Virus record (IMG/VR): IMGVR_UViG_3300030493_000012
Direction: 5' to 3' (one strand)
From: a virus
DNA length: 64,000 nucleotides
In this document: one piece after another, positions 42,394-63,977 of the stretch
Layout: each line of letters starts with the position of its first letter
Numbering within the stretch: position 1 is the first letter of the stretch
Made by a program: the position numbers and the translations under genes
Notes under the pieces: generated by a model
Told to the model about the DNA's origin: nothing
Database searches by the model: none
The model's input: the letters and a program-made list of their open reading frames with translations, nothing else

Positions 42394-42684
42394 TTATGAG
42401 AATAAATCAAAGGTTACATTTTCAACCTTGCAATCCCAATAATCAGACAAAATAGCTTCTGCCCGCGAAAACCACAATTCCTTATTAAAGTTAATATCAT
42501 TATCCGTCAAATCCAAATTTTGAGACTGGCCAAAAATCTCGACTTTGCCAAAATCATTCAAATTGCCCGTAACATTCACGCCAGCCATATTACAATAGGT
42601 TGAATTGCACCCAAGCAACATTGCGCTTGAATCATCTATTTGAACCAAAGGTTTTCCGCAAGCTTTACAAATTAAATTTTTCAT
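42394..42684 (-). CDS. Hypothetical zinc-binding protein
   Basis: CKACG...C...C; TTGCCA-17-TAAGGT-6-ATG. Confidence 0.65.
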   Translation of the reverse strand: MKNLICKACGKPLVQIDDSSAMLLGCNSTYCNMAGVNVTGNLNDFGKVEIFGQSQNLDLTDNDINFNKELWFSRAEAILSDYWDCKVENVTFDLFS

Positions 42685-42920
42685 AATTTCACCTTAAACT
42701 TTTCAAACTATCATGGCAAGGTTTATTTTAGACTATTTTTTCTCAAATTTGAGAATTAACCACAAAATCAAACTCCACTAAGTTTTTGGCCTAGTGGAGT
42801 ATCACATATATTTGACTAAATGGGCGGGCTTTTGTTTTCGTGCATATATATTTAGGCTTATTGATTTGAAAATCCGATTATTAAGGCTAGAGCAACAAAA
42901 ATCAATATCATATTTCTAGC

Positions 42921-43364
42921 CTAGGCCAAACCCGCGTTATTGTCAATCTTGTTTTGCTCAAAAATTCGGGCTTCGTTGCAAGCTGCCTTGTAAGCTTCAC
43001 AAACAAGCATAAAATCGTCAAAATTGACTTTAATCCCATAATCATCTAATGAAGCCCATGCACCGTCAAAATCATCGCCAAGCATTTTAATGCTTTCCAA
43101 GGCTAACACCCGGTTTTTGAGACTGAAATTATCATGCAAAGCTTTCCGCCATGCCGCGAATGCTGGCATCGTTGCAAGCTTTTCAGCATATTTTGCCTTG
43201 CATTTTTCAAAGTGTGCTTTCGGGTCAATTCCCGGTTTGACTTTGCCCCAAACTTTCCATCCGTGCCCGTAGTTTTTCAGGATTTTTCCATCCGCGCAGT
43301 AGCAAACTTTGTGTGTCAAACGTTCAATTTGCCCCAATTCACCATGCTTATAGATTGTTGCCAT
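42921..43364 (-). CDS. Hypothetical protein
   Basis: 147 aa; TTGACA-17-TAGTGT promoter. Confidence 0.65.
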   Translation of the reverse strand: MATIYKHGELGQIERLTHKVCYCADGKILKNYGHGWKVWGKVKPGIDPKAHFEKCKAKYAEKLATMPAFAAWRKALHDNFSLKNRVLALESIKMLGDDFDGAWASLDDYGIKVNFDDFMLVCEAYKAACNEARIFEQNKIDNNAGLA

Positions 43365-43439
43365 AATTTTTTATTTAATTTATTGTTTGCCTAACATCTA
43401 CACACTAAACTTTTGTGCTTGGTTTGTCAATATCCAAAA

Positions 43440-43724
43440 TCAGGAAAAATAAGCAACAATTTCCCAACGTCCACTGGACATTTTATACCAAACAAATTCA
43501 AGATATACCTTGCCAAGCAAAGTTTGAATTTCCCAATTTTTCCGCCCCTCATTGCCAACAAAACCAAACAAGGTTAAAGAATCATCATTCAAGGGAATAT
43601 GGTTATCAGCCAAAACTTGAACAATACCATTAAAAGACTGCCCCAAAGTCTCAAAGTAATTGTTTGTTGTGGTAAAAGGAGCAATTTCCTTATTGAGTTT
43701 TTTAACTAAAGCGTTTTTGGTCAT
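43440..43724 (-). CDS. Hypothetical protein
   Basis: Likely start MTKNALV; ends SGRWEIVAYFS. Confidence 0.6.
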   Translation of the reverse strand: MTKNALVKKLNKEIAPFTTTNNYFETLGQSFNGIVQVLADNHIPLNDDSLTLFGFVGNEGRKNWEIQTLLGKVYLEFVWYKMSSGRWEIVAYFS

Positions 43725-43780
43725 AATTTTTTGTTTTTTTTCTGTCAACCTATTCGCCTTAAATTTTTTTAACTAAGCTG

Positions 43781-44134
43781 TCAATGGCAAAGATTAAAAT
43801 TTTTGAACCAAGCAAACTGTAATTTCCTCGCCTCAATTTCATGTGGCCGATTGACATAAGGCATTAAACATTCTTTACCATACCAAAACTCTTTTCCTTT
43901 ATGTATTTGCAACTTGCCCTTTAAAATTTGCAAACAATGAATATATTCATGGGCTAAGCCTATTATTTGGCTGTCTAATACTCTGCATATATTTACCCTA
44001 ATGCTTTTAGGCTGGCCGTTTTGCAAAACTAATTCTGCCACTGTACTATTTAAACTCCAATCTTTGAAAAACTCTATGGCTAAAGGCTTAATGCCAGCTT
44101 TTCGCGCAAAGTATTTGTTTGCCCTTGCCAGCAT
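43781..44134 (-). CDS. Putative HExxH metallopeptidase-like protein
   Basis: LAHEYIHCLQ...PHEIEA. Confidence 0.6.
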   Translation of the reverse strand: MLARANKYFARKAGIKPLAIEFFKDWSLNSTVAELVLQNGQPKSIRVNICRVLDSQIIGLAHEYIHCLQILKGKLQIHKGKEFWYGKECLMPYVNRPHEIEARKLQFAWFKNFNLCH

Positions 44135-44135
44135 A

Positions 44136-44219
44136 TTAAAACAAGGCTAATGCCAAAAACAAAACAGCGACAACAAAACAGCCAATTACATCCAAAGTTA
44201 TTTCAAAGTTATGTTTCAT
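44136..44219 (-). CDS. 27-aa membrane peptide
   Basis: MKHNFEITLDVIGCFVVAVLFLALALF; TTTACT-17-TATTGT-6-ATG; stop 1 nt before next ATG. Confidence 0.5.
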   Translation of the reverse strand: MKHNFEITLDVIGCFVVAVLFLALALF

Positions 44220-44311
44220 TTATTGACAATAAACTTATTTAGCCTAAAAGTAAAGAATTATTTGAATTTATTTAGCGAGAGCAATTCTCAATTTTGAGAA
44301 TTATAGACAAC

Positions 44312-44338
44312 AAAAAGCCCAGCTTATTAGGCCGGGCT
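44312..44338 (-). terminator. Probable intrinsic terminator (possibly bidirectional)
   Basis: AGCCC...GGGCT flanked by A and T runs. Confidence 0.55.
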
Positions 44339-44353
44339 GATTTTTTGGTTTAT

Positions 44354-44512
44354 TTAGCTAACATTGCAAGCGGCATAAAACCGCGCAAAGTCGAATCGCG
44401 GATTAGCCTTTTTACAGGTTTCCGCCGTCAATTCTGCCTGTTTTCGGCGCTCTGCCTTATCGGCAATCTTGCTAATGTTTTCCGCAAAGAGTTTGAAGTG
44501 TTTTTTTGTCAT
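44354..44512 (-). CDS. Small conserved phage protein (MTKKHF...NPRFD..RF type)
   Basis: 52 aa, below track cutoff. Confidence 0.65.
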   Translation of the reverse strand: MTKKHFKLFAENISKIADKAERRKQAELTAETCKKANPRFDFARFYAACNVS

Positions 44513-44609: not shown

Positions 44610-45188
44610 TTAATCCATCCGGCTATCAGTATAAGCATTAATCCCGTATTTTGAAAGCACGGCGCAAAAGGCATTACAATATTTCTCTTTGCGGTCTAAG
44701 CTTTGGTTAAAATCATGGCAGGGAAAGGCCCAACCGCCATAATAGTTTTTATAACCCATTTTGTTGGCTTTCAACCATTTAGCAAAGCCAGAATTTCCCG
44801 GCTTGATAACAGCATTCGCGAATCCGCAACATCCTTCATTGACAACCCAACTTTGGACAACCGGGCTTGAATCATCCAAGGGATTGGCATGACCTTGAAC
44901 AACCATTGGGACTGGCTTGGACGCATTGCCAGCGGCTAGGCCAGCGGCATGGGCCTCATTGAATACCTTTTGATAATCAAGTTTAACGGTCAAAGTTTTG
45001 CCATTTGACTTGTCAATCCCGCCAAGCGCAATCAATTCATTTTTGACCGTAACCGGGTCATTTTGAGCGCGGGTTATAAAACCGCTGGCTTGGCCCTTGG
45101 TTAGCGTCAATTTTCTGACATCCGTTTTTGTGGCCAAATAAAGAGCAAAACTTTGGCGTGGCGTCATGTTTTCGATTGTATCAATCAT
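44610..45188 (-). CDS. Conserved-type phage hypothetical protein
   Basis: EGCCGFA...NQSLDRKE.Y..AF..VL...GI.A...SRMD. Confidence 0.7.
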   Translation of the reverse strand: MIDTIENMTPRQSFALYLATKTDVRKLTLTKGQASGFITRAQNDPVTVKNELIALGGIDKSNGKTLTVKLDYQKVFNEAHAAGLAAGNASKPVPMVVQGHANPLDDSSPVVQSWVVNEGCCGFANAVIKPGNSGFAKWLKANKMGYKNYYGGWAFPCHDFNQSLDRKEKYCNAFCAVLSKYGINAYTDSRMD

Positions 45189-45453
45189 TTTTTTGTTTTG
45201 TTAATTGTTTGCCTAACGATTTAACCTTAGTTTTTTGCGCCTAATCTGTCAATTCTAATTTTCAAGATTTTTCAGCAAGTTTTTGATGTCAATCCCAAGA
45301 CAATACAAAGAGACTTTAGCCCGCTCTTTGTTGTCGCTATTGACGCAAGATTTTAAAGTTTCAAACTCAATTCTGGCATTTTCCAGAATTTGCATAAAAA
45401 TAAGGTTATCTTTCATAATTTAAACTCTATTCTTTTTAACCTTGTTTGTCAAT

Positions 45454-46087: not shown

Positions 46088-46306
46088 TTATTTAATTGCT
46101 CTCGCTGTATTATTCTCAATAAACCAGTCTGGCACATTGCTAGTTTGGAATTCCAAGTGTGTATTTTTGTAGATTAGCCCAAAGCTTGCATGATTTTTGT
46201 TGGCAAACCAAATTTCTGGCTTGTTATCTTCATTAAGCAAAATGTGTTGCCCGTTGCCAATGTAACAATTGTATTTGTAGCCAGCCTGTTTTAATGTTTG
46301 CTTCAT
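46088..46306 (-). CDS. Hypothetical protein (leaderless geometry)
   Basis: TTGACA-17-TAGGCT-6-ATG. Confidence 0.65.
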   Translation of the reverse strand: MKQTLKQAGYKYNCYIGNGQHILLNEDNKPEIWFANKNHASFGLIYKNTHLEFQTSNVPDWFIENNTARAIK

Positions 46307-46721
46307 AGTTTTAGCCTAACTTTTCAGAACAAAAATGTCAACCTAGTTTTTGGGTAAACTTTCCAAATACTTCATTGCCCCGTTGTAAGTGTTTTGCGCC
46401 TGTTTTTCCTCGCCATTAAAACAAGGATAATAGTCACAATAACCGGCCTTGCGAGCTTTGTCAATTTGCTCGTTTTGCTCTTTTGTCAGTGATTCAAAGT
46501 TTGTTTCCATATTTTTAGTTTGTATTTTTTAGCACGGTTTGTCAAATAAAATTAGTCTAAATCTTTTTTCCAATTATTTCGGTCTAATTTGGAACCTTTA
46601 CCCCTTTTAGGCTTAACCATTCTGGTTTTAAATTCTTGCATGTTGCGCCGGATTTTCCGAAAATTTTCTTTGTAATTGTGCATAATTTTAGTTTTAATTA
46701 TTTATACACAAAAAGCAATCT

Positions 46722-46955
46722 CTATTTGAAACAATTAGGGCAGCGATAATCTAAACGGCCATTAACAGCCCAACCAATTGGCGGTTGAATGAATTTATTC
46801 TTTAAACACTTTTCAATTTCGCCATTAAAATCATCAAGCGTCATTTTGCCAGTATTAGTGCAAATTGTGGTTGAACTATAAGCTTGAGCGCCACACTTTT
46901 TGCAAGTAACCACTGGGCAAACCTTTATTTCGGCGCTAATTAATGTTTGAATCAT
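46722..46955 (-). CDS. Small zinc-binding protein
   Basis: CKKCG...CPNC; promoter adjacent. Confidence 0.6.
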   Translation of the reverse strand: MIQTLISAEIKVCPVVTCKKCGAQAYSSTTICTNTGKMTLDDFNGEIEKCLKNKFIQPPIGWAVNGRLDYRCPNCFK

Positions 46956-46986
46956 ATTTTTAGTTTTAATTTTTGCGCCTCAAATG

Positions 46987-47175
46987 TCAAACTTTATTAT
47001 AAGTAATTCGCCCTGTATATTCAAGCAAATTAACCATTAGCTTGCAAATCAAAATCCCAAGCAACACCCCATCACCAAAATTCAAATCCGAAATCACAAA
47101 CCAAGCTTTCCAGCCAAGGTAAAGAGAAACATAAAAATGCCAATATGCAAAAATTACTCTGTCAAGTGTGTCCAT
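46987..47175 (-). CDS. Small membrane protein
   Basis: Hydrophobic; TTGTAT-17-AAATAT-6-ATG. Confidence 0.55.
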   Translation of the reverse strand: MDTLDRVIFAYWHFYVSLYLGWKAWFVISDLNFGDGVLLGILICKLMVNLLEYTGRITYNKV

Positions 47176-47363
47176 AATTCTATATTTGGTTATTTAGTCC
47201 GAAAATACAAGTTCTAATTTGGTTTATTTTAGCGAGAGCAATTAGCGACAGCCAAAAATTAAAAACAGAGTTTTGTTTTAGCTTTGTATCTCTGTTAATG
47301 CTTAACGATAACCCGGACTTTGTAAGTCTTATTACCGTCCAATTTAGGTTTGCAGCCTAAAAA

Positions 47364-47552
47364 TTAATTATCAATTGGTTGAAAAACCGTCCCGGCTGGC
47401 AACCTACTAATGTGCCTTAATCCATCATGCTCTCGGCGTTTGTTATAATACCATAACGCCTCATCTTCTTTTGTTTCCATTGGTTTATCAGAAACAATTT
47501 CTGAACATGACGACATCCAATCGGTGAGAGGAAAAATTACTTTGTATTTCAT
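47364..47552 (-). CDS. Hypothetical protein
   Basis: TTGACA-17-TAAATT-6-ATG. Confidence 0.65.
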   Translation of the reverse strand: MKYKVIFPLTDWMSSCSEIVSDKPMETKEDEALWYYNKRREHDGLRHISRLPAGTVFQPIDN

Positions 47553-47590
47553 GTTTTAAATTTAAACTATTTTATTTACTTTGTCAATCT

Positions 47591-47764
47591 TTATTCCAAA
47601 ATTTTCTCTTGAATTTTAAAATTTGGAACATAGGAGGAAATTTTTCGGATTGATTTTATTTCATTGGCGACAAAATCATCTGCCTTTTTTTGGCTGTCAA
47701 AAATCCTAATCAAATACCATTCTTCATTATCGCCAGCAATGTTAAAAACGCAATAAACTTTCAT
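47591..47764 (-). CDS. Hypothetical protein
   Basis: True start MKVYCVF, 6 nt after AATAAT. Confidence 0.6.
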   Translation of the reverse strand: MKVYCVFNIAGDNEEWYLIRIFDSQKKADDFVANEIKSIRKISSYVPNFKIQEKILE

Positions 47765-47852
47765 ATTTTGATTATTGATTATTTGGCCTATGATGTCAAC
47801 AAAAAAACTGGCTAAGTTTTTATGCCTAGCCAACTTTGCGAATCTTTTACCG

Positions 47853-48545: not shown

Positions 48546-48881
48546 AATTAAATGGCCTAACGCCGCTTGTTACTTCAATGACGAAAAAAGTGTTTTTGGT
48601 TTCCATGTTTCTATATTTACCTATTTGAGCGGCCAAGTCAACTAAAAATCAATCTATTTTTAATCGGCGGCAGCCAAGTATTTCTTCAAAACCTCTGCTC
48701 TTTTCTTATACAAACCATCCAAAACAATCTCTTGCCTTGCCATTTCAGCCTCTAAATTGATTATTTCAACACTCAAATTCTCATGTTCATCAGCCAAGAT
48801 GTTTTTTTTGTTAAAAGTATATGTTTTGTCCATACTTTTATAATTAACTAAAAAAACACGAAAATCAAGAAAAAACTTAGT

Positions 48882-49274: not shown

Positions 49275-49374
49275 AATTTTGTAAGAATTGGCGACAGCCC
49301 AAACCAAGCTATCAGCGTTTTTAGAGGCTTTAGACTCTTTGCAACCTTTTTATTAAAAATAAGAATAAAGAAAA

Positions 49375-49628
49375 GTGTCGCACATTCATCCTACTTTCTT
49401 TTATTTCCTTCTGGAACACCAAGGTTAACTCGCTTTGTGCAAGTCGGCTTGGTAAGAAAGCTCCAGCGACCTATCATTATTGACGGCTAGACAGCTAATC
49501 CAGCTAGTAATTTAATTCAGGTTTTCTTCCCTAGGTTATTTTGCCAGTGTGCTACACTGAATTGTTTAACCTTTCACTTTTTCTCTATTCTTGCGGTTGC
49601 AAGCCGCTTTACTTTGATTGCTCTCGCT
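49375..49628 (-). ncRNA. Candidate structured RNA or long 5' leader
   Basis: TTGACT-17-TAGTAT promoter (49635-49663), no ORF, several predicted helices. Confidence 0.4.
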
Positions 49629-49795
49629 AACTAAATACTAAATTAAACAAACACCAAAGTCAAATTTTATTTCTAAAAAAGGTCTGACGGTCTCAGGTCG
49701 CTCAGCTTGAATAGCAAGGATTCAAACGCTGCCCTCAATGAACCGCCAGATTGTTAAGAGCCGGGAAGGCTCGCAACATCCTAAGATTAAGTTTT

Positions 49796-50137
49796 TTAAC
49801 TGAAAAAGTCAACAATTTTCTTTGCCAAACTGAAAAAGTCAAAACTAGCCTTTTCTTCCATCCTGCCCAAAGCTATTTTCACTCCAGTCTTATAGCAGAA
49901 ATTGTCCATTTTGGAGCAAACAGCAGACCCGACAAACCTACCTTGCGGGCCATCCAATTCAATGATTGTCAAGCCGCCCTTTGGATGTCGGCGCTTGCCA
50001 TCCAAATCCTTAATAGGCTCAACTTTTTGCCTCTTGACAATCGGAACGCCGAAATTGGCATAACGATAGTGCTTTACGCGAACCTTATAACCTTTTTGGC
50101 GCAGGCTCTGGATTGATTCACTTGATAGGTTGGGCAT
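49796..50137 (-). CDS. Conserved-type phage hypothetical protein
   Basis: GGLT...G.A.CS..DNF....G..IALGR; TTGACA-17-TAATAT-6-ATG. Confidence 0.7.
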   Translation of the reverse strand: MPNLSSESIQSLRQKGYKVRVKHYRYANFGVPIVKRQKVEPIKDLDGKRRHPKGGLTIIELDGPQGRFVGSAVCSKMDNFCYKTGVKIALGRMEEKASFDFFSLAKKIVDFFS

Positions 50138-50154
50138 ATTCTTATATTAGGTTT

Positions 50155-50403
50155 TTATTTATTGTTTGTCAAATTAAAAAGCTCAAAATCAAAATAAACT
50201 CTGCATTTGCCATCTCCTATCATTTCTTCATACAATTCGCCTATTTTTTGACGCAAATTATTTAGATATAAATTTTCTTCTTGTGGTTCGCCGTCAAATA
50301 CTGATAAATCTATGCTTGTGGACAATTCAAAATGAGAAGAGAAAAGACCCACTGATGGGTCATTGGGAAATTCAATATAGATTTTTTCAATTGTGCGTGT
50401 CAT
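50155..50403 (-). CDS. Hypothetical acidic protein
   Basis: TTGACA-17-AAATAT-6-ATG. Confidence 0.6.
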   Translation of the reverse strand: MTRTIEKIYIEFPNDPSVGLFSSHFELSTSIDLSVFDGEPQEENLYLNNLRQKIGELYEEMIGDGKCRVYFDFELFNLTNNK

Positions 50404-50434
50404 GTTTCTATATTTGATTATTTAACCAGAATTG

Positions 50435-50662
50435 TCAAGCAGAATATAAAACAACCAATCTCTTTACAATCTCCTTATTAATAGCATAATTACCGGCGCG
50501 GGTAAAATTCAGATTAACTTTTTTGGCTTTTCCATCTTCCAAAATAAACACACTTCCAGTTTGGCCGCTTAACCAGTTATTTATTTCGGCCTCAGCTTTC
50601 AAAAGAGGAAAATCTTTTAAGGCAAAATCAGATTGAAAATTTATTACTGGCGTTCGCGGCAT
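50435..50662 (-). CDS. Hypothetical protein
   Basis: TTGATT-17-TAATAT-6-ATG. Confidence 0.6.
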   Translation of the reverse strand: MPRTPVINFQSDFALKDFPLLKAEAEINNWLSGQTGSVFILEDGKAKKVNLNFTRAGNYAINKEIVKRLVVLYSA

Positions 50663-50693
50663 AATCCTATATTAAGCCAATTAAACGAAAGAA

Positions 50694-50897
50694 TCAAGTT
50701 TTAAAATACAAACTTTGGTATTTTGTGGTTTCATTCAGGCCATCATAATAACCTTGCCAATAAGCTCTAATTAAAGGATTAATATCATCAAGCCCAAATT
50801 GCATTTTGCGCCGGTTAGCAAAACAGAGCATATCAGAATCATCATGCACATAACCACTGGCAAACCCGGCTCTATATTCTTTCTGTATCTTTGTCAT
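50694..50897 (-). CDS. Hypothetical protein
   Basis: TTGACT-17-TAGGTT-6-ATG. Confidence 0.6.
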   Translation of the reverse strand: MTKIQKEYRAGFASGYVHDDSDMLCFANRRKMQFGLDDINPLIRAYWQGYYDGLNETTKYQSLYFKT

Positions 50898-50928
50898 GCT
50901 TTAAACCTAATCTTTTCGGAAAACAAAG

Positions 50929-51177
50929 TCAATTATAAGTATTAATTGTTTGCATAGCCGCAACGCCTCTTTCCATCTTTTGTTCAATGCCATTGGTATC
51001 AAAGACTTTGATAAAACGCGGATAAGCTGAACCTTGTGATTTAAGATTTTGCGTCAATTGAAACCACAGGCTAAAAATAGCTTTACGCGAGCCAAAAACT
51101 TCAAAATGATTCTCGCTTTCAAACATTGACTCAGTTGTATCTGATGCTTCTGTATATTGGAGCTTGAAAATATTCAT
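50929..51177 (-). CDS. Hypothetical protein
   Basis: TTGACA-17-TAATCT promoter. Confidence 0.6.
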   Translation of the reverse strand: MNIFKLQYTEASDTTESMFESENHFEVFGSRKAIFSLWFQLTQNLKSQGSAYPRFIKVFDTNGIEQKMERGVAAMQTINTYN

Positions 51178-51227
51178 AATTGCTATTTCTAATTAAAGAT
51201 TAGACTATTTTTACAAGCTTGTCAAAT

Positions 51228-52412: not shown

Positions 52413-52643
52413 TCATTTAATTTCGATTGTGGCGTCACTCTTGAAAAACATCAAGCCGCCATCAATAGCGTCAACAATAGAAGTTTTTGCAGAATTCCAA
52501 ATACGACCGTCGCTCAATCGAACAGCCAGATAACGACCATCTGGATTCGAAAGCACATAAACATTACCATCTGGGTCTCGAAACAAATCGCCAGCTTTGA
52601 AATCGGTTTTTCGGATAATATCTTTGGTTATGATTTTGTTCAT
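52413..52643 (-). CDS. Hypothetical protein
   Basis: TTGACT-17-TAAACT-6-ATG. Confidence 0.65.
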   Translation of the reverse strand: MNKIITKDIIRKTDFKAGDLFRDPDGNVYVLSNPDGRYLAVRLSDGRIWNSAKTSIVDAIDGGLMFFKSDATIEIK

Positions 52644-52680
52644 AGTTTGAGTTTAGGTTAAAAATTTAAAAGAGTCAAGA

Positions 52681-52971
52681 TTATTCAGCAGCCAGCCAAG
52701 TAAACAATTCCTTAGAAGTTTCAAAAACAAAAACTTCAAAATTGGCATTAATTAGATTCTTAAGAAGCCCCGCTAAAGTAGGCTCATCGTAAATACAATA
52801 ACCATTTCCTTTGGTAAGCTGGTTTGTTGACAGTAGTTTATAAAATCCCATCTCGTATTTTTCTCTGGTTACGAAAGCTTTTTCGCCGCAACGCTTTACT
52901 CCAATAAAATGTTTTGGCGTAACGTCTTGCACTTTAATTTCGGTTGTATTATCAATAATAACTTTAATCAT
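52681..52971 (-). CDS. Hypothetical protein
   Basis: TTGACT-17-TAAACT-6-ATG. Confidence 0.65.
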   Translation of the reverse strand: MIKVIIDNTTEIKVQDVTPKHFIGVKRCGEKAFVTREKYEMGFYKLLSTNQLTKGNGYCIYDEPTLAGLLKNLINANFEVFVFETSKELFTWLAAE

Positions 52972-53014
52972 AGTTTTAGTTTAGTTTAAAAGTTCCGAAA
53001 AGTCAATCTTTTAT

Positions 53015-53305: not shown

Positions 53306-53702
53306 TGTTTTGGCGTTCGCGGTTTGTTCTATATTTCAATAATAGGTTATTTAGTCCGAAAATGCAAGTGTTATTTCCAACTAATATTCAAATCAGTAAG
53401 AATCTTTCGCGCCAAATAAATTTCACCATCAGCGCATCCTGTATAATAGGCATTATCATAATTACCACCACAAGATGTATCAAAATCAGAATCATCAGAA
53501 AGCATTTTTTGCTTGGCTGTGGTTTTTAGTTCTTCAATCAATTTTTCCATAATTTAGATTATTGTTTATTCGGCCTAAAATGTCAAGTTTTATTTTCTGA
53601 AAATGGTGGGCCTTATGGCTTGAGTTGACCATAATGACAGCTTATGAGGCTGCTGTTATTTACCTCGTTTTAACTAAAGGCCCGTAAGTTGCTGATTATC
53701 AA

Positions 53703-54116
53703 TCAATTATCAAGAACAATCGGCCAATTACTTTCAACATACCTACTTGCCTCTTCAAAATTCCTAGGCTTGTCATTGTAAAGTTTAAAAACACAACCAT
53801 CAAGCCCGCCAAAGACAATTTTGCCATTATAAGTTTCCATCGGCACAACAAAAGTTAGTTTGTCAGAATACTTTTTTCCAAGTTCCATCTTAAAAACTGG
53901 CTTAAAATTTTTGGCAAGAAAAGACTCAAAATCTTGCTTGTTTTGGATAAGAGAACCATCAGGAACATCAGAACTACTAAAAGTCTTATTGTCCAAATTC
54001 AAAGTGAGATAATTATCGCTAAGTACATGATTGTCGCGCTTAAATCCATACTTTTCAGCTAGTTCAACACAAGAGAGGCTGTTTATAACAACAATGTTGG
54101 AGATTTCAATTTTCAT
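53703..54116 (-). CDS. Hypothetical protein (C-domain shared with 57860-58327)
   Basis: TTGACT-17-TAAACT-6-ATG. Confidence 0.65.
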   Translation of the reverse strand: MKIEISNIVVINSLSCVELAEKYGFKRDNHVLSDNYLTLNLDNKTFSSSDVPDGSLIQNKQDFESFLAKNFKPVFKMELGKKYSDKLTFVVPMETYNGKIVFGGLDGCVFKLYNDKPRNFEEASRYVESNWPIVLDN

Positions 54117-54171
54117 AATTTAAGTTTAGAGTTTTGTGTTTAAAGAGTCAAGTTTATTGTTTGATTAAACC

Positions 54172-54182: not shown

Positions 54183-54812
54183 TTAATGATAACGATAAGC
54201 CACATTTTTAACTTTGGTTGACCAGCAAAGCCGACAATCCAAACATTTATTGTTTTGTTTTGGTGCGCGGCAAGTCCAGCCATTCCTAACAACCGTTGAT
54301 GTTGTAACACCAAGGCTTTGCGCCAAAGTTGTAAAGGCCGGGCCATCAATCATGTAACTTGAAAGCCTAATATTCAGGTTTTTCGGAACCTTGTTACCCT
54401 TTTTAATATAAGAACTGACAATCGAAATCTCTTTAGTTGGCAACCAAAATTTAATCCGGCCACACAAAGAGGCAATTTCGCAAATTTGAGCCAGCATTTT
54501 TTCAGATTGCAAATCTCCCGAATCAAACCAACGAAAGTAACCGCTTGATTCTGTGGCATTTATAACGGTTGCCATTGCCAGCACAAAATTAGGATGATTA
54601 AAAGCATTTAGCCGAAAATCATGGGCATTTTTAACATTATCATAAAGATAATTACCACGGCGAGCATAGCATTTATTGCAAACGCTTCCCTCAATTTCAT
54701 ATAATTTGCCGCCAGTAATGCATTTTAGTGCCGAAATTGAATAACCATAACAAGGCATTTTGCTTGGTTCGCTCAAATTACCAATAATGGCCTTTGCTTC
54801 GTTTAATGTCAT
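54183..54812 (-). CDS. Gp88-like phage protein
   Basis: LSEPSKMPC..Y...C...VCNKCYA..GNY...YFRWFDSGDLQS...FWLPTKE. Confidence 0.75.
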   Translation of the reverse strand: MTLNEAKAIIGNLSEPSKMPCYGYSISALKCITGGKLYEIEGSVCNKCYARRGNYLYDNVKNAHDFRLNAFNHPNFVLAMATVINATESSGYFRWFDSGDLQSEKMLAQICEIASLCGRIKFWLPTKEISIVSSYIKKGNKVPKNLNIRLSSYMIDGPAFTTLAQSLGVTTSTVVRNGWTCRAPKQNNKCLDCRLCWSTKVKNVAYRYH

Positions 54813-54888
54813 ACTTAAAGACTAATCTTTATTTACGTTTATGTCAACTTATTTTGTAAGGATTCACGCTTCTGGTGTAACCTAATAT

Positions 54889-55780: not shown

Positions 55781-55876
55781 TCACTTTTTGTCACAAGTAA
55801 AGCCAACTGGCAGATTAAAAATTGCAATGTATTTAGGCAATTTGGCGTTACCGAAACTGAATTTGAGTTTTTCCAT
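55781..55876 (-). pseudogene. Truncated N-terminus of a second Gp88-like gene
   Basis: MEKLKFSFGNAKLPKYIAIFNLPVGFTC then stop at the endonuclease end; TTGACA-17-CAATAT-6-ATG intact. Confidence 0.55.
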
Positions 55877-55911
55877 GATTTAATATTGTATTTAATTTCC
55901 GAAAATGTCAA

Positions 55912-56151
55912 CTAAAACATTGAAGCAAAATCGGCGCGGCCATCGCTCCATCCATAACTATAACCATTGGCAAAATTCCTAGCTTCTTTTTCTTCTTTAA
56001 TATAGAAAGTTTTGACTAAGGTTTTTTGTTTGGTTTCGCCGTTTTCAACATAAACAGCAATGCCTTTACCCCACAATCCGACACAAACCATTGATTGTGA
56101 ATTACCTAGTTGAGCCGCAAAAAGCATTTCTTTAATGTCGTTAATAATCAT
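55912..56151 (-). CDS. Hypothetical protein
   Basis: TTGACT-17-TAACCT-6-ATG. Confidence 0.6.
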   Translation of the reverse strand: MIINDIKEMLFAAQLGNSQSMVCVGLWGKGIAVYVENGETKQKTLVKTFYIKEEKEARNFANGYSYGWSDGRADFASMF

Positions 56152-56419
56152 ATTTTTAGGTTAAGCTAAATTCCAAACAAAGTCAACTTTTTATTTTATT
56201 TAAATAAGCGAGAGCAACTAGTCAAGCGCACAATTAATATTTTCTGTATCAATTTTAAAACTATCACTAACAAAAGTCCCCTCTGGTAATTCAGCGTTAT
56301 CTGCCTTATTGATAGCCTCTTCCAGACAAGATGCCTCAATTTCCATGTCGCCGCACATTGTCCAAGTAACAGGAATAGTAAATCTCATGTCTATATTTAA
56401 GGCTTAATTAACGAAAATG

Positions 56420-56698
56420 TCAAGTTTGTTCTGGCGCAAATCCGTCAATAGAAATAATATTGTAAATCTCGGTTTTCTCAATTTTGAGAATTTCAATTTT
56501 GTCTCTCAAAGTTTGATTATGCATTCGCTCTAAAAACTCTATATACTCAATAGCCGCCGCTTCGTTTAGAAAAATACTATTAACATCAATATTGGCAAGA
56601 AATCTTTCTAACGGGTTTAAGTGTGCCGTGTATTCAAACTCAAAATACTTTTCAGTATTTTTAAGGCGCAAAACATAATAAGTGGAGATTTTCGTCAT
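56420..56698 (-). CDS. Hypothetical protein
   Basis: TTGACT-17-CATCAT-6-ATG. Confidence 0.6.
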   Translation of the reverse strand: MTKISTYYVLRLKNTEKYFEFEYTAHLNPLERFLANIDVNSIFLNEAAAIEYIEFLERMHNQTLRDKIEILKIEKTEIYNIISIDGFAPEQT

Positions 56699-56733
56699 GT
56701 TCTAATGATGAATTAAAAAGATTAAGAAGTCAA

Positions 56734-56928
56734 CTATTTAATACCTAATTCCGGCAAAGAACCAACAATATTTTTCAAAACATTTCTAATTGGTTTTAAA
56801 TCAACCATTACCGCCCGAACAGCGACGTTTGGATGAACAGTAGATTTAATTACATTTTCAAGTGCTTGAACGAAAATTTTCTTTTCCGATTCTAACTGTT
56901 GAATCCGAGCTATCAAATTAGTATCCAT
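56734..56928 (-). CDS. Hypothetical protein
   Basis: True start MDTNLIA; TTGACT-17-TATTCT-6-ATG. Confidence 0.6.
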   Translation of the reverse strand: MDTNLIARIQQLESEKKIFVQALENVIKSTVHPNVAVRAVMVDLKPIRNVLKNIVGSLPELGIK

Positions 56929-57707
56929 ATTTAAAGAATAGATTTTCGTAACAAAGAAGTCAATTATAAAAAGAAATAAGAGCAAGAAAAATCAAAGCTT
57001 CCAAATCTGATACGATGGGAAAGCAACAATAAATCTCACCCTCGACTATTTTACACTTTTTAGTTATTAAAATCAATTATTTTGTTATGTTTTTCCAAGT
57101 TTTGAGTGTAAGATATTATGATACGATGGTAATAACCCAAAATATCCTCAGTTATGAGTCTGCTTGCCACTATGGCCTAAAAAGAGCAGAGAATAATGAC
57201 ATTAGAATAAGACAGGTAATTGATAGCGTGATTACTGTTAAGACAACCAAAGCCCGTAAAAAGGGTCTCCACAAACTTGCTAACATCAAGGAGGTATTTC
57301 GGGAGAACGCGCCTTCACAGTGGATGCAATCGAATAATAAATCAAATAAGATTGTTCTAAATGCTGATACCTTAAACCGACAGGGCGAAGGAACACAGTT
57401 AGAAACACAAGAACATAGGCATTGCCAGAACTTATTCTTTCAAACTAATCAGGTGAGTCTCAGAGCAAAGAGCAGAACTGAAGATACGCTACCGCGAGCC
57501 TAAAAGATACCGCGCTTGATTATTGGTTTATTTGGTAATTAGAAAAATTACTAAATGGGTTTCCTTTGCTTGTTTCCTTAACCTCCAAGGCTATAGGCGA
57601 AGAAAGCACTAAATCGAAGGCGTTAGCCGAAGATTTATTAGCGGAGCTAATTAATAAATATAAATAAATCATTTGATTAGTCCGAAAACAGAGTGTATAA
57701 TCTATTG

Positions 57708-58327: not shown

Positions 58328-58385
58328 AGTTTTGTGGTTTAATCTATAGTCAAATAATACATTTTCGTGCTAATGAAGTCAAGGT

Positions 58386-58805: not shown

Positions 58806-59030
58806 GATTTGTTACTATTAAGAGTATTGATTAAAAAGGATTAATTGTCAATCTTTATCTACATTAAATTCAACAATTTCAGAAAGCCCAACAACACAAG
58901 AGTCGCCATTTTCCAACCAAAAGTTCATATAACCTTGGCTCCATTCTAAATTAATAATTTTAAATTGCTCGCTGGTTTTGTCTGTATAGTAAATAGTTAG
59001 TGTCATAATCAAATTATTGATTTTCGGAAC

Positions 59031-59441
59031 TTAATTGTCAATCTTTTTAACCAATTTCACGCCATCACAAAACACTGTTTTCCAAGGGCAATTAACAACA
59101 ATATTAGATTGATTAGTAAGAATAGTCTCGTTATTCCAAAATTCTATGATTATGCTTAAACGACTATTGTTACTCATTTTTCTCCCAATAACAGGATTCA
59201 AAACTTCGCACTCATAAATCCTAAGTTTTTCCATATTTCCGCAATAAGACATTGCCTCTGAAAAATCCGCAAAAACAAATAGTTTGGATTTTTTTAGCTT
59301 GGGGTAAACAAATTCATTTAATTTATATTCTACAACCAGAGAACTATCGGCAGTCCAAGAAGACCATAAACAATTATCAGAAGACTCAAAGACAACTTTG
59401 TAGTATTTTGTATTGCTCTCGCTAGTTGTGTTGTTTTCCAT
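59031..59441 (-). CDS. Hypothetical protein
   Basis: True start MENNTT; TTGATT-17-TATTCT-6-ATG. Confidence 0.65.
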   Translation of the reverse strand: MENNTTSESNTKYYKVVFESSDNCLWSSWTADSSLVVEYKLNEFVYPKLKKSKLFVFADFSEAMSYCGNMEKLRIYECEVLNPVIGRKMSNNSRLSIIIEFWNNETILTNQSNIVVNCPWKTVFCDGVKLVKKIDN

Positions 59442-59516
59442 AATCAAAGAATAGACTTTAAAAGCGGCCAAATCAAGTATTATTTATTGTAAACTTTTAT
59501 AAACAAACCAAAACTA

Positions 59517-59702
59517 TTATTTAGTTCCGAAAAGTTCTGGCCGTCGCTGTTTTGCATCACAGCCACAATCAAAGCCATTAGCAAAAGCTTTGGCTAGTTG
59601 CTCGGCATTGTGTTCGCCATAATAATCAAAACCATAAGACTCAAGTTTAATATCGTTAATATAAACAGCGTAGCAATATGTTTCGCGTTTGATTTTTGTC
59701 AT
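59517..59702 (-). CDS. Hypothetical protein
   Basis: TTGACA-17-TATCTT-6-ATG. Confidence 0.6.
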   Translation of the reverse strand: MTKIKRETYCYAVYINDIKLESYGFDYYGEHNAEQLAKAFANGFDCGCDAKQRRPELFGTK

Positions 59703-59891
59703 AATTAAAAGATAGAGTAAATGAACAATGATGTCAATTCTTTTTAGCTCGCTTCTTGGCCTTCTTTTTAAGCTTAGATTCTTTCATTAAGTGTTGATAA
59801 TAAGCATCTAACATCCAAGAGTATGATTGATTTTTTGTCATGGTTTTAGATTAAGTTAAATATACACAGGAGTCAACATAAATTTTGAATC

Positions 59892-60451: not shown

Positions 60452-61210
60452 TTAATTTGTTTTCAGTCTATTAATTATAATCTCATAATACTTTTGTTCC
60501 TTCTCAATTCCAATAAAATTTCGATTAAGATTTTTAGCCGCAACCAATGTTGAGCCAGAACCGGCGCAGTTATCCAAAACTAAGTCGCCTTCATTTGAAT
60601 AGGTCTTAATTAGATATTCTAATAAATCCACAGGTTTTTGCGAAGGATGCAATGTTCCTAATCTGTTTGGAATACTGGCAAACTTCTTAATTGAAGTAGG
60701 ATTCCTTAATAAAGATATTTGTTTTAATGAGTCTTGTTTTTCAAGCCCGGTTGTAGATTCTCCATGATTGCGATAAGAACCAAAATTTTTACCAGTGGCA
60801 AATCTAGCCTTCGATTTCTCTGTGAAGCCTTCTCTTTCTTCTTGTATTGCATTAAACGCACCATGATAAAAGACAGAAACGATTTCATGATTTCTCATTG
60901 GCTGCTTTTTTGATAAAGCAATTCCACTTGGTTTAGACTTATGCCAAATCCAGTCGTATCGGAAATTCTTAATATTGCTCATTCTCAAATACGAAGAAAA
61001 TGGCTCGCTCCCGAAAAGTGCAATAACACAAGAATCTTTTCTTATTCTAATATATTCTGGCCATAATTTTTCAAAAGGAATTATAATATCCCAAGAATTT
61101 GAAGTTGAGCCATAAGGAAGGTCGCAGATAATTAAATCAATTGATTTATCATCAATTTCTTTCATCTTTTCAAGGCAGTCAGCACAGTAAACTTGATTAA
61201 TTTCTAACAT
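60452..61210 (-). CDS. Orphan beta-class N6/N4 DNA methyltransferase
   Basis: DLIICDLPYG (motif IV) before HPSQKP...VLDNCAGSGST (motif I); no cognate nuclease adjacent. Confidence 0.9.
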   Translation of the reverse strand: MLEINQVYCADCLEKMKEIDDKSIDLIICDLPYGSTSNSWDIIIPFEKLWPEYIRIRKDSCVIALFGSEPFSSYLRMSNIKNFRYDWIWHKSKPSGIALSKKQPMRNHEIVSVFYHGAFNAIQEEREGFTEKSKARFATGKNFGSYRNHGESTTGLEKQDSLKQISLLRNPTSIKKFASIPNRLGTLHPSQKPVDLLEYLIKTYSNEGDLVLDNCAGSGSTLVAAKNLNRNFIGIEKEQKYYEIIINRLKTN

Positions 61211-61457
61211 ATTTTATTTCAAAATACTTTCTTAAATGGTAAGCATAAGCTATTCTTTTTATTCTTAGTCTATAACTTTTCTCCCATTCTTCTGGTGCTT
61301 GCAAGATTGAATGAATTTTAGAGGCAAAATCCGCCGCTCTATCATAATAACAAAAAGGAATAAACCTACCATGATTAGCCTCAGAAAGAGCAATTTCCCA
61401 GTATTCAGAGAAAGTTAGCTTTTCTGGACTATAAATAAACAATTCTTTTTTATCCAT
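61197..61457 (-). CDS. Hypothetical protein
   Basis: 86 aa. Confidence 0.55.
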   Translation of the reverse strand: MDKKELFIYSPEKLTFSEYWEIALSEANHGRFIPFCYYDRAADFASKIHSILQAPEEWEKSYRLRIKRIAYAYHLRKYFEIKYVRN

Positions 61458-61833
61458 ATTAATCCTCTAATCCTAATGCTAGACTAAAACCTTCATTCAA
61501 GATTTCTTGAACTACGGACTCAGGAATATTGTGTTTGGCGGCTAACTCTTTGACCTTTTCGGCAATTTGTTCGGTTAAGTTCATGATTTAATTATTCGCT
61601 TTATTGCGTTTAATGTCAAGATTTAGTTACGAAAAGCCGCTCGTTAGTCAGTTAAAGCCATAAAAACATAATACGGCCACGCCAAAACTCGCTTCAAAAA
61701 GTATTTTCGGAAAGTCCAAAACTGATTAAATTTAATTAGCCCGAAAACAAAAGGCAATATTCCGAAAAGCCCACCAATGCCAAAATAAATAATTGGAATA
61801 AGAATTAAATCATCCATAAATCAGTAGTTTGTT

Positions 61834-62052
61834 TTAACTCATCCGATAGATAGTCCAACCAAAACCATTTTTATTCCATCGTTTTTTGTGCCAATCAATA
61901 TGCACAATTTCGAGCAAAACTTCTAGTCCCAAGATATTTAGACCGAAAATAATATTGTAATAATCCCAATGGCAAGTAGCACTAAACCACTCTGAATTAT
62001 TGTAATGTCCGGTCAAGGCCCAAGGCCACTTTGGATTGTGAAAGATTGTCAT
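61834..62052 (-). CDS. Hypothetical aromatic-rich protein
   Basis: TTGACA-17-TAGACT-6-ATG. Confidence 0.6.
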   Translation of the reverse strand: MTIFHNPKWPWALTGHYNNSEWFSATCHWDYYNIIFGLNILGLEVLLEIVHIDWHKKRWNKNGFGWTIYRMS

Positions 62053-62095
62053 GTTTTTAGTCTATGTTAAACAAACAACGATGTCAATCATAATT

Positions 62096-62305
62096 TTATT
62101 CAACCAGCCTCAAATATTCCACGTTGGCCAAAATACAAGAGACATAAATAGTCTCATTTTGATTCCAAAACCCCTCGTCTAGTCTCACAACAACTGGCTT
62201 AATCGCAGTATCGCTCAACTCAATTGGCGAGCTAATAATAGTTCCAACTGTGTTTTGTGCAATATTAATTCTTACCTTGTCGCCAATTTTCAAATTTACC
62301 TTCAT
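62096..62305 (-). CDS. Small KOW/SH3-like protein
   Basis: LKIGDKVRI...VGTI; TTGACA-17-AATTAT-6-ATG. Confidence 0.6.
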   Translation of the reverse strand: MKVNLKIGDKVRINIAQNTVGTIISSPIELSDTAIKPVVVRLDEGFWNQNETIYVSCILANVEYLRLVE

Positions 62306-62344
62306 GCTTTAATAATTAACTTTTCGTCACTAAATGTCAAACGT

Positions 62345-62581
62345 TTATTCTGGCTTAATCAACCATTCTTTAATCTGCTCATGGCTAACACCATAAAGAC
62401 CGTCATGCTGTGTCAACATATACTTGATAGTGCCAATCAGCATATCAGGCTCGCAAAAATCATCTGGATATTCCAAGTCGCCCAAAATATCAGAATAAAA
62501 CTCAAAGGTTTCTTTTTTAGACCAGTTCTTTTCAATAGCCTTGGCTGCAACTGTTTTAGAAATGTCAAAATGTTGGCTCAT
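62345..62581 (-). CDS. Hypothetical acidic protein
   Basis: 78 aa. Confidence 0.55.
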   Translation of the reverse strand: MSQHFDISKTVAAKAIEKNWSKKETFEFYSDILGDLEYPDDFCEPDMLIGTIKYMLTQHDGLYGVSHEQIKEWLIKPE

Positions 62582-62590
62582 AAGTTTTGT

Positions 62591-62785
62591 TTATTCTATA
62601 ACCTCGCCTTCGTGAATAAAAGACTTAAGGTGTTTGTCTATATCTACTTTGTCTGAATAATTCTTTTTAAGATAAGCTAATTCACCGTCCAAAAGATAAT
62701 TAGTTGCCAATTCTTTGGTTTTAAAAATTTTGTCAACCACCGCGCAGTTGTAACCGTCAGTTGTATAAGTAAAGTAAACTTTCAT
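62591..62785 (-). CDS. Hypothetical protein
   Basis: 64 aa. Confidence 0.55.
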   Translation of the reverse strand: MKVYFTYTTDGYNCAVVDKIFKTKELATNYLLDGELAYLKKNYSDKVDIDKHLKSFIHEGEVIE

Positions 62786-62791
62786 AGTTTA

Positions 62792-63034
62792 TCACTCAAG
62801 CCTGTTTTTAATAGCATCCTCAATCTTATTCCATTCTTTTGAACAAAAATCGCCAAAAAACTCAGGATGGTTACGATGAATTTCTAAAAATACCTCTCTC
62901 AATTCTGGACAAGTACCATAGATATGGCCGGTAATTATTGCCGTATTCAAAACGGCCAAAAATTCCTTAGCCAGTTGGCCTGAAAAACGAACGTCAAATT
63001 CTACTTCCATTGTTTTTTTAATGTTTTTAACCAT
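62792..63034 (-). CDS. Hypothetical protein
   Basis: 80 aa. Confidence 0.55.
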   Translation of the reverse strand: MVKNIKKTMEVEFDVRFSGQLAKEFLAVLNTAIITGHIYGTCPELREVFLEIHRNHPEFFGDFCSKEWNKIEDAIKNRLE

Positions 63035-63049
63035 AATTTTAGAATAGTC

Positions 63050-63277
63050 TTAAAGACCGCCAAAGTCAAGTTTTCCTTTATTGTCCATTATGATTTTTAG
63101 CTCTGTGACATGACAACCCTGTTTGTGGCCACAGATATAAGATTTAGCCTCTCTTTCCGACAAGGCACAATAATATTCAATGCCATCAATCAAAACCATG
63201 AAGAAATTATTATCTTGTTTTATTTCGTATTTCATTTTAATCAAAGAAACCGCCTTTTTGCTTGTGCCTGCAAACAT
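63050..63277 (-). CDS. Hypothetical protein
   Basis: True start probably MKYEIKQ. Confidence 0.5.
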   Translation of the reverse strand: MFAGTSKKAVSLIKMKYEIKQDNNFFMVLIDGIEYYCALSEREAKSYICGHKQGCHVTELKIIMDNKGKLDFGGL

Positions 63278-63507
63278 AGCACAGCAAACTAATTAGCGCG
63301 AATAATCCAATGACCAAAAGAAAATTCATCTTATTTATTCTTAGAATCAAAACTCAACACAACACACTTCAAATTCGTCATATCAAGCCACCAACCCGGC
63401 TCAACCATATTTTCATTACCAACCGTAATTTTGTCAATTTCGGCAATTCTGGTAATAATTTCGGCCTTTAGTTCTTCAAATTTCTGGTGTGGAATTTCGT
63501 TCATAAA

Positions 63508-63720
63508 TTAAGATTCACTAAAATTTCTGGACTCTACCAAATAAATATTGCGAAAAGAACCTTTGTTTTTTGCGCTCTTTCTCATTAGTTCATAATGAAA
63601 CGAAAAAGCCTCTCCAAAATCCAAAAATCCTCGGCAATTTCTTTCTCGCCAATAATCGCCATCTTCACTTCCGATAGTCGGCCATTCATATTCATCGTAA
63701 ATAACAAAGTATTTATACAT
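63508..63720 (-). CDS. Hypothetical protein
   Basis: TTGACA-17-TAATCT-6-ATG. Confidence 0.65.
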   Translation of the reverse strand: MYKYFVIYDEYEWPTIGSEDGDYWRERNCRGFLDFGEAFSFHYELMRKSAKNKGSFRNIYLVESRNFSES

Positions 63721-63755
63721 AATTAAAGATTAGGCTTAAGTTACGAAAATGTCAA

Positions 63756-63977
63756 CTAAATTAAATTTAAATACGAATCCAAAGTTTTCTGAATTTCAAA
63801 AACATTACCAGTTCCAAAACTATCAGCCGGAAAAATCTGTTTTTCGTTCATAATAATCAAAATACCTTTCAATTTGCGGCCACATAAATAACTTGCAATA
63901 TTGCTAGTTTTTGCAAAGTGTTTAAGCGTCATGTCGTTTTTGTTAATAACAAAGAAAGGAAAGGTTTTGCTGTTCAT
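63756..63977 (-). CDS. Hypothetical protein
   Basis: 73 aa at window end. Confidence 0.55.
   Translation of the reverse strand: MNSKTFPFFVINKNDMTLKHFAKTSNIASYLCGRKLKGILIIMNEKQIFPADSFGTGNVFEIQKTLDSYLNLI

Follow-up and report, generated by a model that had tools for sequence, protein, structure and literature searches.

How is a block of several dozen small phage genes expressed when many of them begin at a fixed distance from a promoter, and what mRNA 5' ends should be expected there? This question is raised by a 64,000-nt stretch of DNA (the window) from IMG/VR virus record IMGVR_UViG_3300030493_000012, issued from an uncultured phage of ~182 kb, with a G+C content of ~35% across the window. 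The large terminase, portal-region and virion genes occupy 1-35.5 kb on the minus strand, followed by a short block of plus-strand genes (35.6-40.6 kb), and the segment from 42.4 to 64 kb is packed with small minus-strand open reading frames (ORFs). This segment, together with three sites at 32.9-37.3 kb, probably constitutes an early or accessory gene block, in which about 37 genes would be served by host sigma70-family early promoters producing mRNAs that are leaderless or carry a leader of 0-3 nt.

The recurrent unit is a -35 hexamer, a 17-bp spacer, a -10 hexamer, 6 nt and an ATG. The initial annotation had listed 32 starts with this geometry, and it is indeed present at all of them, 30 on the minus strand and two (35576 and 37283) on the plus strand. 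With the A of the ATG counted as +1, the -35 consensus is TTGAC(A/T), from -35 to -30. T-35 and T-34 are found in 32/32 listed sites, G-33 in 31, A-32 in 30 and C-31 in 29, while the -10 element combines an invariant T-7 (32/32) with A-11 (31/32; T at 56388). The departures from the -35 consensus are TTGCCA (42684), TTTACT (44219), TTGTAT (47175) and TTGATT (50662 and 59441). Weaker signals are G-24, A-16, R-15 and A at -4 and -3; position -1 is a pyrimidine in 30 of the 32 sites, and the DNA 5' of the -35 element is A/T-rich. Sigma70 holoenzyme generally starts transcription 7 nt after the -10 element, preferably at a purine that follows a pyrimidine. The proposal that the A of the ATG is itself the start point fits the sequence on each of these counts (canonical hexamers, an A 7 nt after the -10, a pyrimidine at -1), and this A is the predicted 5' end.

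The strict pattern TTGAC-N19-A-N3-T-N6-ATG occurs 29 times, compared with a mean of 0.23 and a maximum of 2 in 100 dinucleotide shuffles. At ~35% G+C, a chance product of A+T-rich sequence could be suspected, loose promoter scans giving 105 matches vs 70 in shuffles. Such an origin is, nevertheless, refuted by the strict matches, since none of the 100 shuffles exceeds 2, and by their confinement to a single strand, spacer length and region. Two further analyses, both proposed by the initial annotation, come out in its favour. For the -10-to-ATG distance histogram, promoters were defined without regard to the ATG (TTGAC, 17-bp spacer, nAnnnT), which yields 60 sites on the minus strand; the next ATG follows at 6 nt in 27 of them, at 7 nt in three and at 5 nt in one, and no 6-nt peak is seen for spacers of 15, 16, 18 or 19 bp, nor on the plus strand. 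A weight matrix covering -36 to -1, from which the ATG was left out, gives 54 matches at a threshold of 10 bits (~2 in shuffles), and an ATG stands exactly at +1 in 37 of these. Five of the +1 sites are additional to the listed ones (42911, 46683, 46955, 48833 and 63034), and two variants have 7 nt (ATG 45416 and 53550). Among the strong sites, 37 units thus have a distance of 6 nt and two a distance of 7 nt, while 4, 5, 8 and 9 nt are not represented. The array contains approximately one unit per 450 bp.

The distribution of the units in the window is also informative. All 54 matrix matches lie at or beyond 32.8 kb and none in the late/structural half (1-32 kb), so that no late or structural gene carries a sigma70-type unit in the matrix scan. 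These genes are associated with another motif, GTGTAATWA, a candidate late promoter with eight matches where 1.4 are expected, none of them on the plus strand or beyond 36.7 kb; looser variants precede many more genes. The complementary distribution of the two motifs fits early genes transcribed by the host holoenzyme and late genes that would be read differently. Within the early units, many spacers hold TTTTCG right after the -35 element (e.g., 63720, 55876, 56388, 52971 and 47175) or its complement CGAAAA right before the -10 (e.g., 50897, 59006, 56928 and 62305), which accounts for the G-24 signal; these sequences may be the site of a regulator acting on early promoters. They lie outside the standard consensus, as do G-24, A-16 and R-15, and could, therefore, point to a middle class of promoters that depends on a modified polymerase or on a sigma factor encoded by the phage. 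This is very improbable, as both hexamers and the 17-bp spacing are those of the primary-sigma consensus, the genes are small and family-less, as first-expressed genes typically are, and the late genes are already marked by a separate motif.

The promoter-linked ATGs behave as genuine starts. An in-frame stop lies 3-27 nt 5' of the +1 ATG at 29 of the 35 minus-strand sites, often as a TAA or TAG with which the -10 hexamer opens (at -12), and the +1 ATG is, therefore, the sole possible start at these 29 sites. The start codon is ATG at 37/37 promoter-linked sites, and the ORF that follows reaches at least 40 amino acids (aa) in 31/37, compared with ~5% by our own estimate for random ATGs at this composition. 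The cupin gene starting at 32862 offers an external control. Its longest-ORF call has 163 aa from a TTG, while the promoter-linked ATG gives 126 aa; cupin homologues are mostly 115-130 aa long and align only with the last 126 aa, which favours the ATG. The promoter-ATG rule, thus, corrects ORF-track starts as had been claimed, and ORFs of less than 60 aa are exposed by it, also in line with the initial annotation.

How could ribosomes find these starts? The earlier statement that no Shine-Dalgarno (SD) sequence is evident holds: an SD 4-mer core is found at just 1/37 leaderless sites, compared with 12/61 of the other genes of the window and 11% of random windows. Because the core is scarce in both gene sets, the phage as a whole appears to be largely devoid of SD sequences. 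In the 61 other genes, the start context is rich in A at -5 (40/61), -4 (36/61) and -3 (38/61), with T at -1 in 45/61, and A also abounds in the short leaders (12-31 nt) that some genes have. In the predicted leaderless mRNAs, the first 35 nt contain 42% A and fold with -1.15 kcal/mol; internal windows taken from these genes reach -4.07 kcal/mol (p = 7e-11), and the starts of the remaining genes are slightly more structured as well.

A rough gene model of 42.3-64 kb counts ~66 genes. A strict leaderless promoter precedes 34 of them, a promoter at the 7-nt distance precedes two, and the same type of promoter with a 12-31 nt leader precedes ~10. The remaining genes trail the upstream gene at small gaps or overlaps. 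Thus, about one quarter of the genes lack a promoter and come second or third in a unit whose first gene is leaderless, with gaps of 1-3 nt or overlaps between cistrons, as in the unit that starts at 61584 and continues through 61197-61457 to the methylase gene 60452-61210. The notion of one promoter per gene is accordingly right for ~70% of the genes and wrong for the rest, which are downstream cistrons of small operons. The description of the genes as autonomous cassettes fails at the 3' side. Terminator-like sites are not enriched (21 vs 15.3 expected), and only two convincing terminators are found on the gene strand (44338-44316 and 47837-47804). The 78-nt promoter units show no excess structure (mean folding z of 0.11), stem-loops being absent except at 47764, the only unit of the hairpin-plus-promoter form. 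The promoters overlap the ends of upstream genes: the upstream stop is found at -34 in six genuine instances (five times the TGA of TTGAC, once that of TTGATT), and elsewhere at -38 to -47 or within the promoter at -7 to -27. As promoters fill or overlap the intergenic gaps of 30-45 nt and terminators are nearly absent, transcripts should continue into downstream genes.

This architecture gives weight to another explanation, in which the promoters are real, but most protein is made from long read-through transcripts by SD-less internal initiation, as in the late genes, the geometry being simply the shortest gap that genome compaction allows in a host able to do without SD, and no mark of selection for leaderless translation. 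The near absence of terminators and stem-loops, the upstream gene ends overlapped by promoters, the downstream cistrons without promoter, and the 61 non-leaderless genes with the same start context and an SD core in 12 of them (vs 11% of random windows) all speak for it, and it is a possible, if clearly minority, reading. Compaction alone, however, predicts a spread of distances rather than the near-constant 6 nt, and an AUG at the 5' terminus is exactly what leaderless loading requires. The sharp 6-nt peak, thus, speaks for selection on the 5'-terminal placement of the AUG itself. The two modes are not mutually exclusive, and the sequence alone cannot separate 5'-AUG loading from internal initiation.

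The leaderless interpretation can be further weighed with related genomes. Homologues of the terminase number in the hundreds, and the contigs that encode them measure 120-218 kb. In IMG/VR relatives with terminases 35-53% identical, each record contains 2-9 matches to the strict pattern, vs 0 for the reversed control, and their early regions hold arrays of TTGACA, 16-17 bp, nAnnnT and ATG before ORFs of 50-240 aa. Between the -10 and the ATG, G002 and G003 have 6 nt, G005 has 6-7 nt and G001 has 6-9 nt. From the range of 6-9 nt, the family trait would be an absent leader or one of 1-3 nt, and not always an exact +1. When all promoter-linked ORFs are compared by tblastn with the examined relatives, only the GP88-family gene is matched. 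G002 (L096 and L097) and G003 (L098), both distant relatives but mutually close, are collinear at 80-94% identity, except for ~0.8 kb replaced from ~30 nt before a promoter unit. The lack of homologues for these family-less genes and the replacement are what would be expected if the units were mainly recombination cassettes of the T4 promoter-early stem-loop (PeSL) type, exchanging accessory genes among phages, with leaderless expression as a by-product. This is improbable: the units of the window are only ~60-80% identical to each other over 40-56 nt and thus ill-suited to homologous exchange, and they have no stem-loops. In the G002 and G003 arrays, repeats of ~100 nt are scattered. Many relatives (P0002, P0006, P0025 and others) have a terminase of 1040-1065 aa with intein/homing-endonuclease domains (PF14528, PF14890); the terminase of the window has 633 aa, without intein.

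Three observations weigh against a strictly leaderless array. The closest relative examined, G001, has distances of 6-9 nt and not a fixed 6; leadered genes of the window share the A(-5 to -3) and T(-1) context, also without SD; and five promoter-linked ORFs are just 17, 27, 31, 32 and 35 aa long and may not be genes. As the context is common to leadered genes, the conservation of A(-4), A(-3) and pyrimidine(-1) could be due to internal initiation on read-through RNA instead of to the choice of start site. With these points taken into account, leaderless or nearly leaderless early mRNAs made by the host polymerase remain the probable explanation for the ~37 genes. On injected DNA, the host primary-sigma holoenzyme would bind the TTGAC(A/T), 17 bp, tAnnnT units and start transcription at the A of the AUG, give or take 1 nt, yielding an mRNA with neither leader nor SD. 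The 5'-terminal AUG would then be recognized through loading of 70S ribosomes or of 30S-IF2-fMet-tRNA complexes, and A-rich, unstructured 5' ends would favour this direct loading. Recognition of a 5'-terminal AUG is covered by work cited within PMC5312081 and is reviewed in PMC9031893. Read-through would generate nested, overlapping messages, the units being promoter-per-gene modules that are not insulated, and would probably add a second route, i.e., internal, SD-independent initiation through the shared A-rich context.

A bolder version, in which the clade uses leaderless translation as a dedicated early channel that stays translatable while canonical initiation is shut down by the phage or by a host defence, is speculative and rather unlikely. 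Dozens of promoters would then capture the host polymerase, the exact +1 = A geometry would be selected in its own right, and this could come about through altered ribosomes or through a shift in the balance of IF2 and IF3, such as has been reported for phiYS40.

Table 1. Promoter units and other elements of the window. Promoters are given as -35/-10 hexamers with a 17-bp spacer and the ATG at the predicted +1, unless stated otherwise.
Position	Strand	Element and associated gene	Basis
32860..32897	-	TTGACT-17-TATAAT-6-ATG; cupin gene 32482-32862 (126 aa)	strict pattern, matrix, homologue lengths
35541..35578	+	TTGACT-17-TATCAT-6-ATG; 35576-35968, first of several genes in coupled operon	strict pattern, matrix
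37248..37285	+	TTGACA-17-TATCAT-6-ATG; ORF 37283-37495 (70 aa)	strict pattern, matrix
42682..42719	-	TTGCCA/TAAGGT; ORF 42394-42684 (96 aa)	matrix
42909..42946	-	TTGACA/TAGGCT; 17-aa ORF only, doubtful gene; new site 42911	strict pattern, matrix
44217..44254	-	TTTACT/TATTGT; 27-aa ORF 44136-44219, abuts 117-aa gene 43781-44134	matrix
46304..46341	-	TTGACA/TAGGCT; ORF 46088-46306 (72 aa)	strict pattern, matrix
46508..46545	-	TTGACA/CAAACT; ORF 46343-46510 (55 aa)	strict pattern, matrix
46681..46718	-	TTGCTT/AAAACT; ORF 46552-46683 (43 aa); new site	matrix
46953..46990	-	TTGACA/AAAACT; ORF 46722-46955 (77 aa); new site; upstream stop = TGA of TTGAC	strict pattern, matrix
47173..47210	-	TTGTAT/AAATAT; ORF 46987-47175 (62 aa)	matrix
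47550..47587	-	TTGACA/TAAATT; ORF 47364-47552 (62 aa)	strict pattern, matrix
47762..47837	-	terminator-like hairpin 47837-47804, then TTGACA/AATAAT (PeSL-like); ORF 47591-47764 (57 aa)	strict pattern, matrix, terminator scan
48604..48641	-	TTGACT/AAATAT; 32-aa ORF 48508-48606 over 5' extension of DUF932 gene 47853-48545	strict pattern, matrix
48831..48868	-	TTGATT/AATTAT; ORF 48660-48833 (57 aa); new site	matrix
50135..50172	-	TTGACA/TAATAT; ORF 49796-50137 (113 aa)	strict pattern, matrix
50401..50438	-	TTGACA/AAATAT; ORF 50155-50403 (82 aa); upstream stop = TGA of TTGAC	strict pattern, matrix
50660..50697	-	TTGATT/TAATAT; ORF 50435-50662 (75 aa); upstream TGA stop at -34 within -35 hexamer	matrix
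50895..50932	-	TTGACT/TAGGTT; ORF 50694-50897 (67 aa); upstream stop = TGA of TTGAC	strict pattern, matrix
52641..52678	-	TTGACT/TAAACT; ORF 52413-52643 (76 aa)	strict pattern, matrix
52969..53006	-	TTGACT/TAAACT; ORF 52681-52971 (96 aa)	strict pattern, matrix
54114..54151	-	TTGACT/TAAACT; ORF 53703-54116 (137 aa)	strict pattern, matrix
54810..54847	-	TTGACA/TAGTCT; GP88-family gene 54183-54812 (209 aa)	strict pattern, matrix
55874..55911	-	TTGACA/CAATAT; 31-aa ORF 55781-55876	strict pattern, matrix
56149..56186	-	TTGACT/TAACCT; ORF 55912-56151 (79 aa)	strict pattern, matrix
56386..56423	-	TTGACA/TTAAAT; ORF 56218-56388 (56 aa); upstream stop = TGA of TTGAC	matrix
56696..56733	-	TTGACT/CATCAT; ORF 56420-56698 (92 aa)	strict pattern, matrix
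56926..56963	-	TTGACT/TATTCT; ORF 56734-56928 (64 aa; ORF track had TTG 56985)	strict pattern, matrix
59004..59041	-	TTGACA/AATAAT; ORF 58848-59006 (52 aa)	strict pattern, matrix
59439..59476	-	TTGATT/TATTCT; ORF 59031-59441 (136 aa)	matrix
59700..59737	-	TTGACA/TATCTT; ORF 59517-59702 (61 aa); upstream stop = TGA of TTGAC	strict pattern, matrix
59839..59876	-	TTGACT/TAATCT; 35-aa ORF 59734-59841	strict pattern, matrix
61582..61619	-	TTGACA/AATAAT; 41-aa ORF, head of three-gene unit ending in DNA methylase 60452-61210	strict pattern, matrix
62050..62087	-	TTGACA/TAGACT; ORF 61834-62052 (72 aa)	strict pattern, matrix
62303..62340	-	TTGACA/AATTAT; ORF 62096-62305 (69 aa)	strict pattern, matrix
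63032..63069	-	TTGACT/TATTCT; ORF 62792-63034 (80 aa); new site	strict pattern, matrix
63718..63755	-	TTGACA/TAATCT; top matrix score 32.7 bits; ORF 63508-63720 (70 aa), 3-nt gap, 63331-63504	strict pattern, matrix
45414..45452	-	like promoter, 7 nt from -10 to ATG (predicted 0-1 nt leader); ORF 45255-45416	distance histogram, matrix
53548..53586	-	like promoter, 7 nt from -10 to ATG; ORF 53371-53550	distance histogram, matrix
51175..51225	-	like promoter, 13-nt A-rich leader without SD; ORF 50929-51177	distance histogram, matrix
	-	short-leader promoters, predicted start points 52061, 52377, 53332, 58347, 58816, 45815, 45217, 43395	distance histogram, matrix
44316..44338	-	best intrinsic-terminator-like hairpin on array gene strand	terminator scan
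1773, 12048, 16461, 17690, 21672, 30941, 35525, 36668	-	GTGTAATWA (candidate late promoter)	~20-30 nt before late/structural gene starts

Several other elements are found within or next to the array. In the ORF-poor stretch 49275-49795, two strong minus-strand promoters of the array type lie at 49628-49663 and 49777-49812. They score 26.5 and 18.9 bits, with predicted start points at G 49777 and A 49628. With no ORF behind them, the RNAs from these points are candidate small RNAs; no Rfam family is matched here. The RNA from 49628 would begin with AGCGAGAGCAA, the exact complement of a box, TTGCTCTCGCT, which is found 10 times (0.8 expected) and stands just after stop codons, ~55-65 nt before several promoters (44274, 44599, 47231, 54172 and 56207). 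The palindrome TTCTCAA-n-TTGAGAA, present three times (42387-42412, 42740-42765 and 44285-44310), looks like an operator, and two of its copies adjoin the TTGCTCTCGCT box. The minus-strand promoters starting at 43395 and 45217 have a common 5' leader, which begins with GTTAGGCAAACAAT and spans 28-31 nt to the ATGs of 42921-43364 and 44610-45188 (repeat of 65 nt, 71% identical). In the DUF932 gene 47853-48545, the Pfam model is matched only from model position 41. The 32-aa ORF 48508-48606 could reflect a frameshift (real or due to a sequencing error) relative to this gene, or be an upstream mini-ORF; as a frameshifted DUF932 N-terminus it gives no Pfam signal. A second promoter-like site lies inside 48431-48606, just 3 nt before ATG 48431.

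Database searches place the phage far from cultured ones. Megablast of 42-62 kb against cultured phages gives no match, and the closest cultured-phage proteins reach 25-37% identity only. Most array genes are small and without Pfam family. No RNA family is found by an Rfam scan of 39-64 kb, and no tRNA is detected by ARAGORN. Used as bait, the GP88-family gene retrieves unrelated phages of 40-60% G+C without such promoters, and no close metagenome relative, while the 137-aa early gene retrieves no match.

Which host could read such units? Relatives found in metagenome-assembled genome bins carry mixed, non-decisive labels (Flavobacterium, Flavobacteriaceae, Eubacteriales, Cellvibrionales and Verrucomicrobiales), and two distant relatives fall in Flavobacteria bins. 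An SD-less, A-rich start context resembles that of Bacteroidota or cyanobacteria (PMC6847099, PMC3160421). The Bacteroidetes primary-sigma promoter, nevertheless, consists of TTTG at -33 and TAnnTTTG at -7 (PMC6847099), and the array promoters do not conform to it, with A or C at -8 in 27/32 sites and no TG at -6/-5. A Bacteroidota host was, therefore, set aside for mismatch with the TTTG/TAnnTTTG type, despite the SD-less context and the Flavobacteria bins. The SD-less start context, common to all genes, narrows the host search.

Leaderless starts next to promoter elements are known from cellular genomes. Bacterial genes whose ORFs adjoin a -10 element have been described, notably in Actinobacteria and Deinococcus-Thermus (Zheng et al. 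2011, PMC3160421; PMC12340547). The array genes resemble them, with TAnnnT ~12 bp before the start codon, no SD and an AUG start. They differ in forming a dense phage tandem array with a near-invariant TTGAC, whereas the bacterial genes are scattered, mostly in high-G+C phyla, and often have an unclear -35 element. Among phages, no leaderless transcripts are found in phiKZ (PMC8244752), and the 5' untranslated regions of AR9 measure 26-491 nt (PMC5312081). The literature searched holds no description of a phage early region made of leaderless sigma70 -35/-10 units, leaderless mRNAs being otherwise described there only for other temporal classes or hosts. Should mapping bear out the predicted 5' ends, leaderless mRNAs from canonical -35/-10 promoters would be the form in which most early genes are expressed across a large clade of uncultured 180-215 kb phages. 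In practical terms, the "-10, 6 nt, ATG" rule fixes starts and reveals small genes that are mis-called by longest-ORF tracks, and the units offer compact, portable promoter-plus-start modules.

The leaderless promoters of the Thermus phages phiYS40 and P23-45 are not known to have a -35 element. According to the summary given in PMC3594737, the middle and late transcripts of these phages are leaderless. As far as this summary goes, the likeness is that a lytic phage produces (in the present case, by prediction) most mRNAs of one temporal class leaderless and without SD, and relies on host translation from a 5'-AUG. Unlike in these phages, where the class is middle/late and the host phylum is rich in leaderless genes, it is here the probable early class, with full -35/-10 promoters at 35% G+C. 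The array does not fall in a middle/late class of this kind: its TTGAC is near-invariant, it makes up the probable early/accessory block, and the late genes appear to use GTGTAATWA.

The PeSL cassettes of the T4-type phages RB49 and phi1 combine a sigma70 early promoter and a stable stem-loop (terminator or attenuator), with an SD and a leader at the end (Arbiol et al. 2010, PMC2839356). The array shares with them a strong sigma70-type promoter, A/T-rich upstream, before nearly all small family-less genes of a variable region, and an upstream stop just before the promoter. Its units differ in having no stem-loop (with the single exception at 47764), no SD and no leader. The textbook leaderless phage mRNA is that of lambda cI, transcribed from PRM. 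The units are like PRM in that a sigma70 promoter is combined with a start point at the A of the AUG, predicted in the present case; while lambda, a temperate phage, uses this combination for one regulatory gene, the arrangement is deployed here as a genome-scale array.

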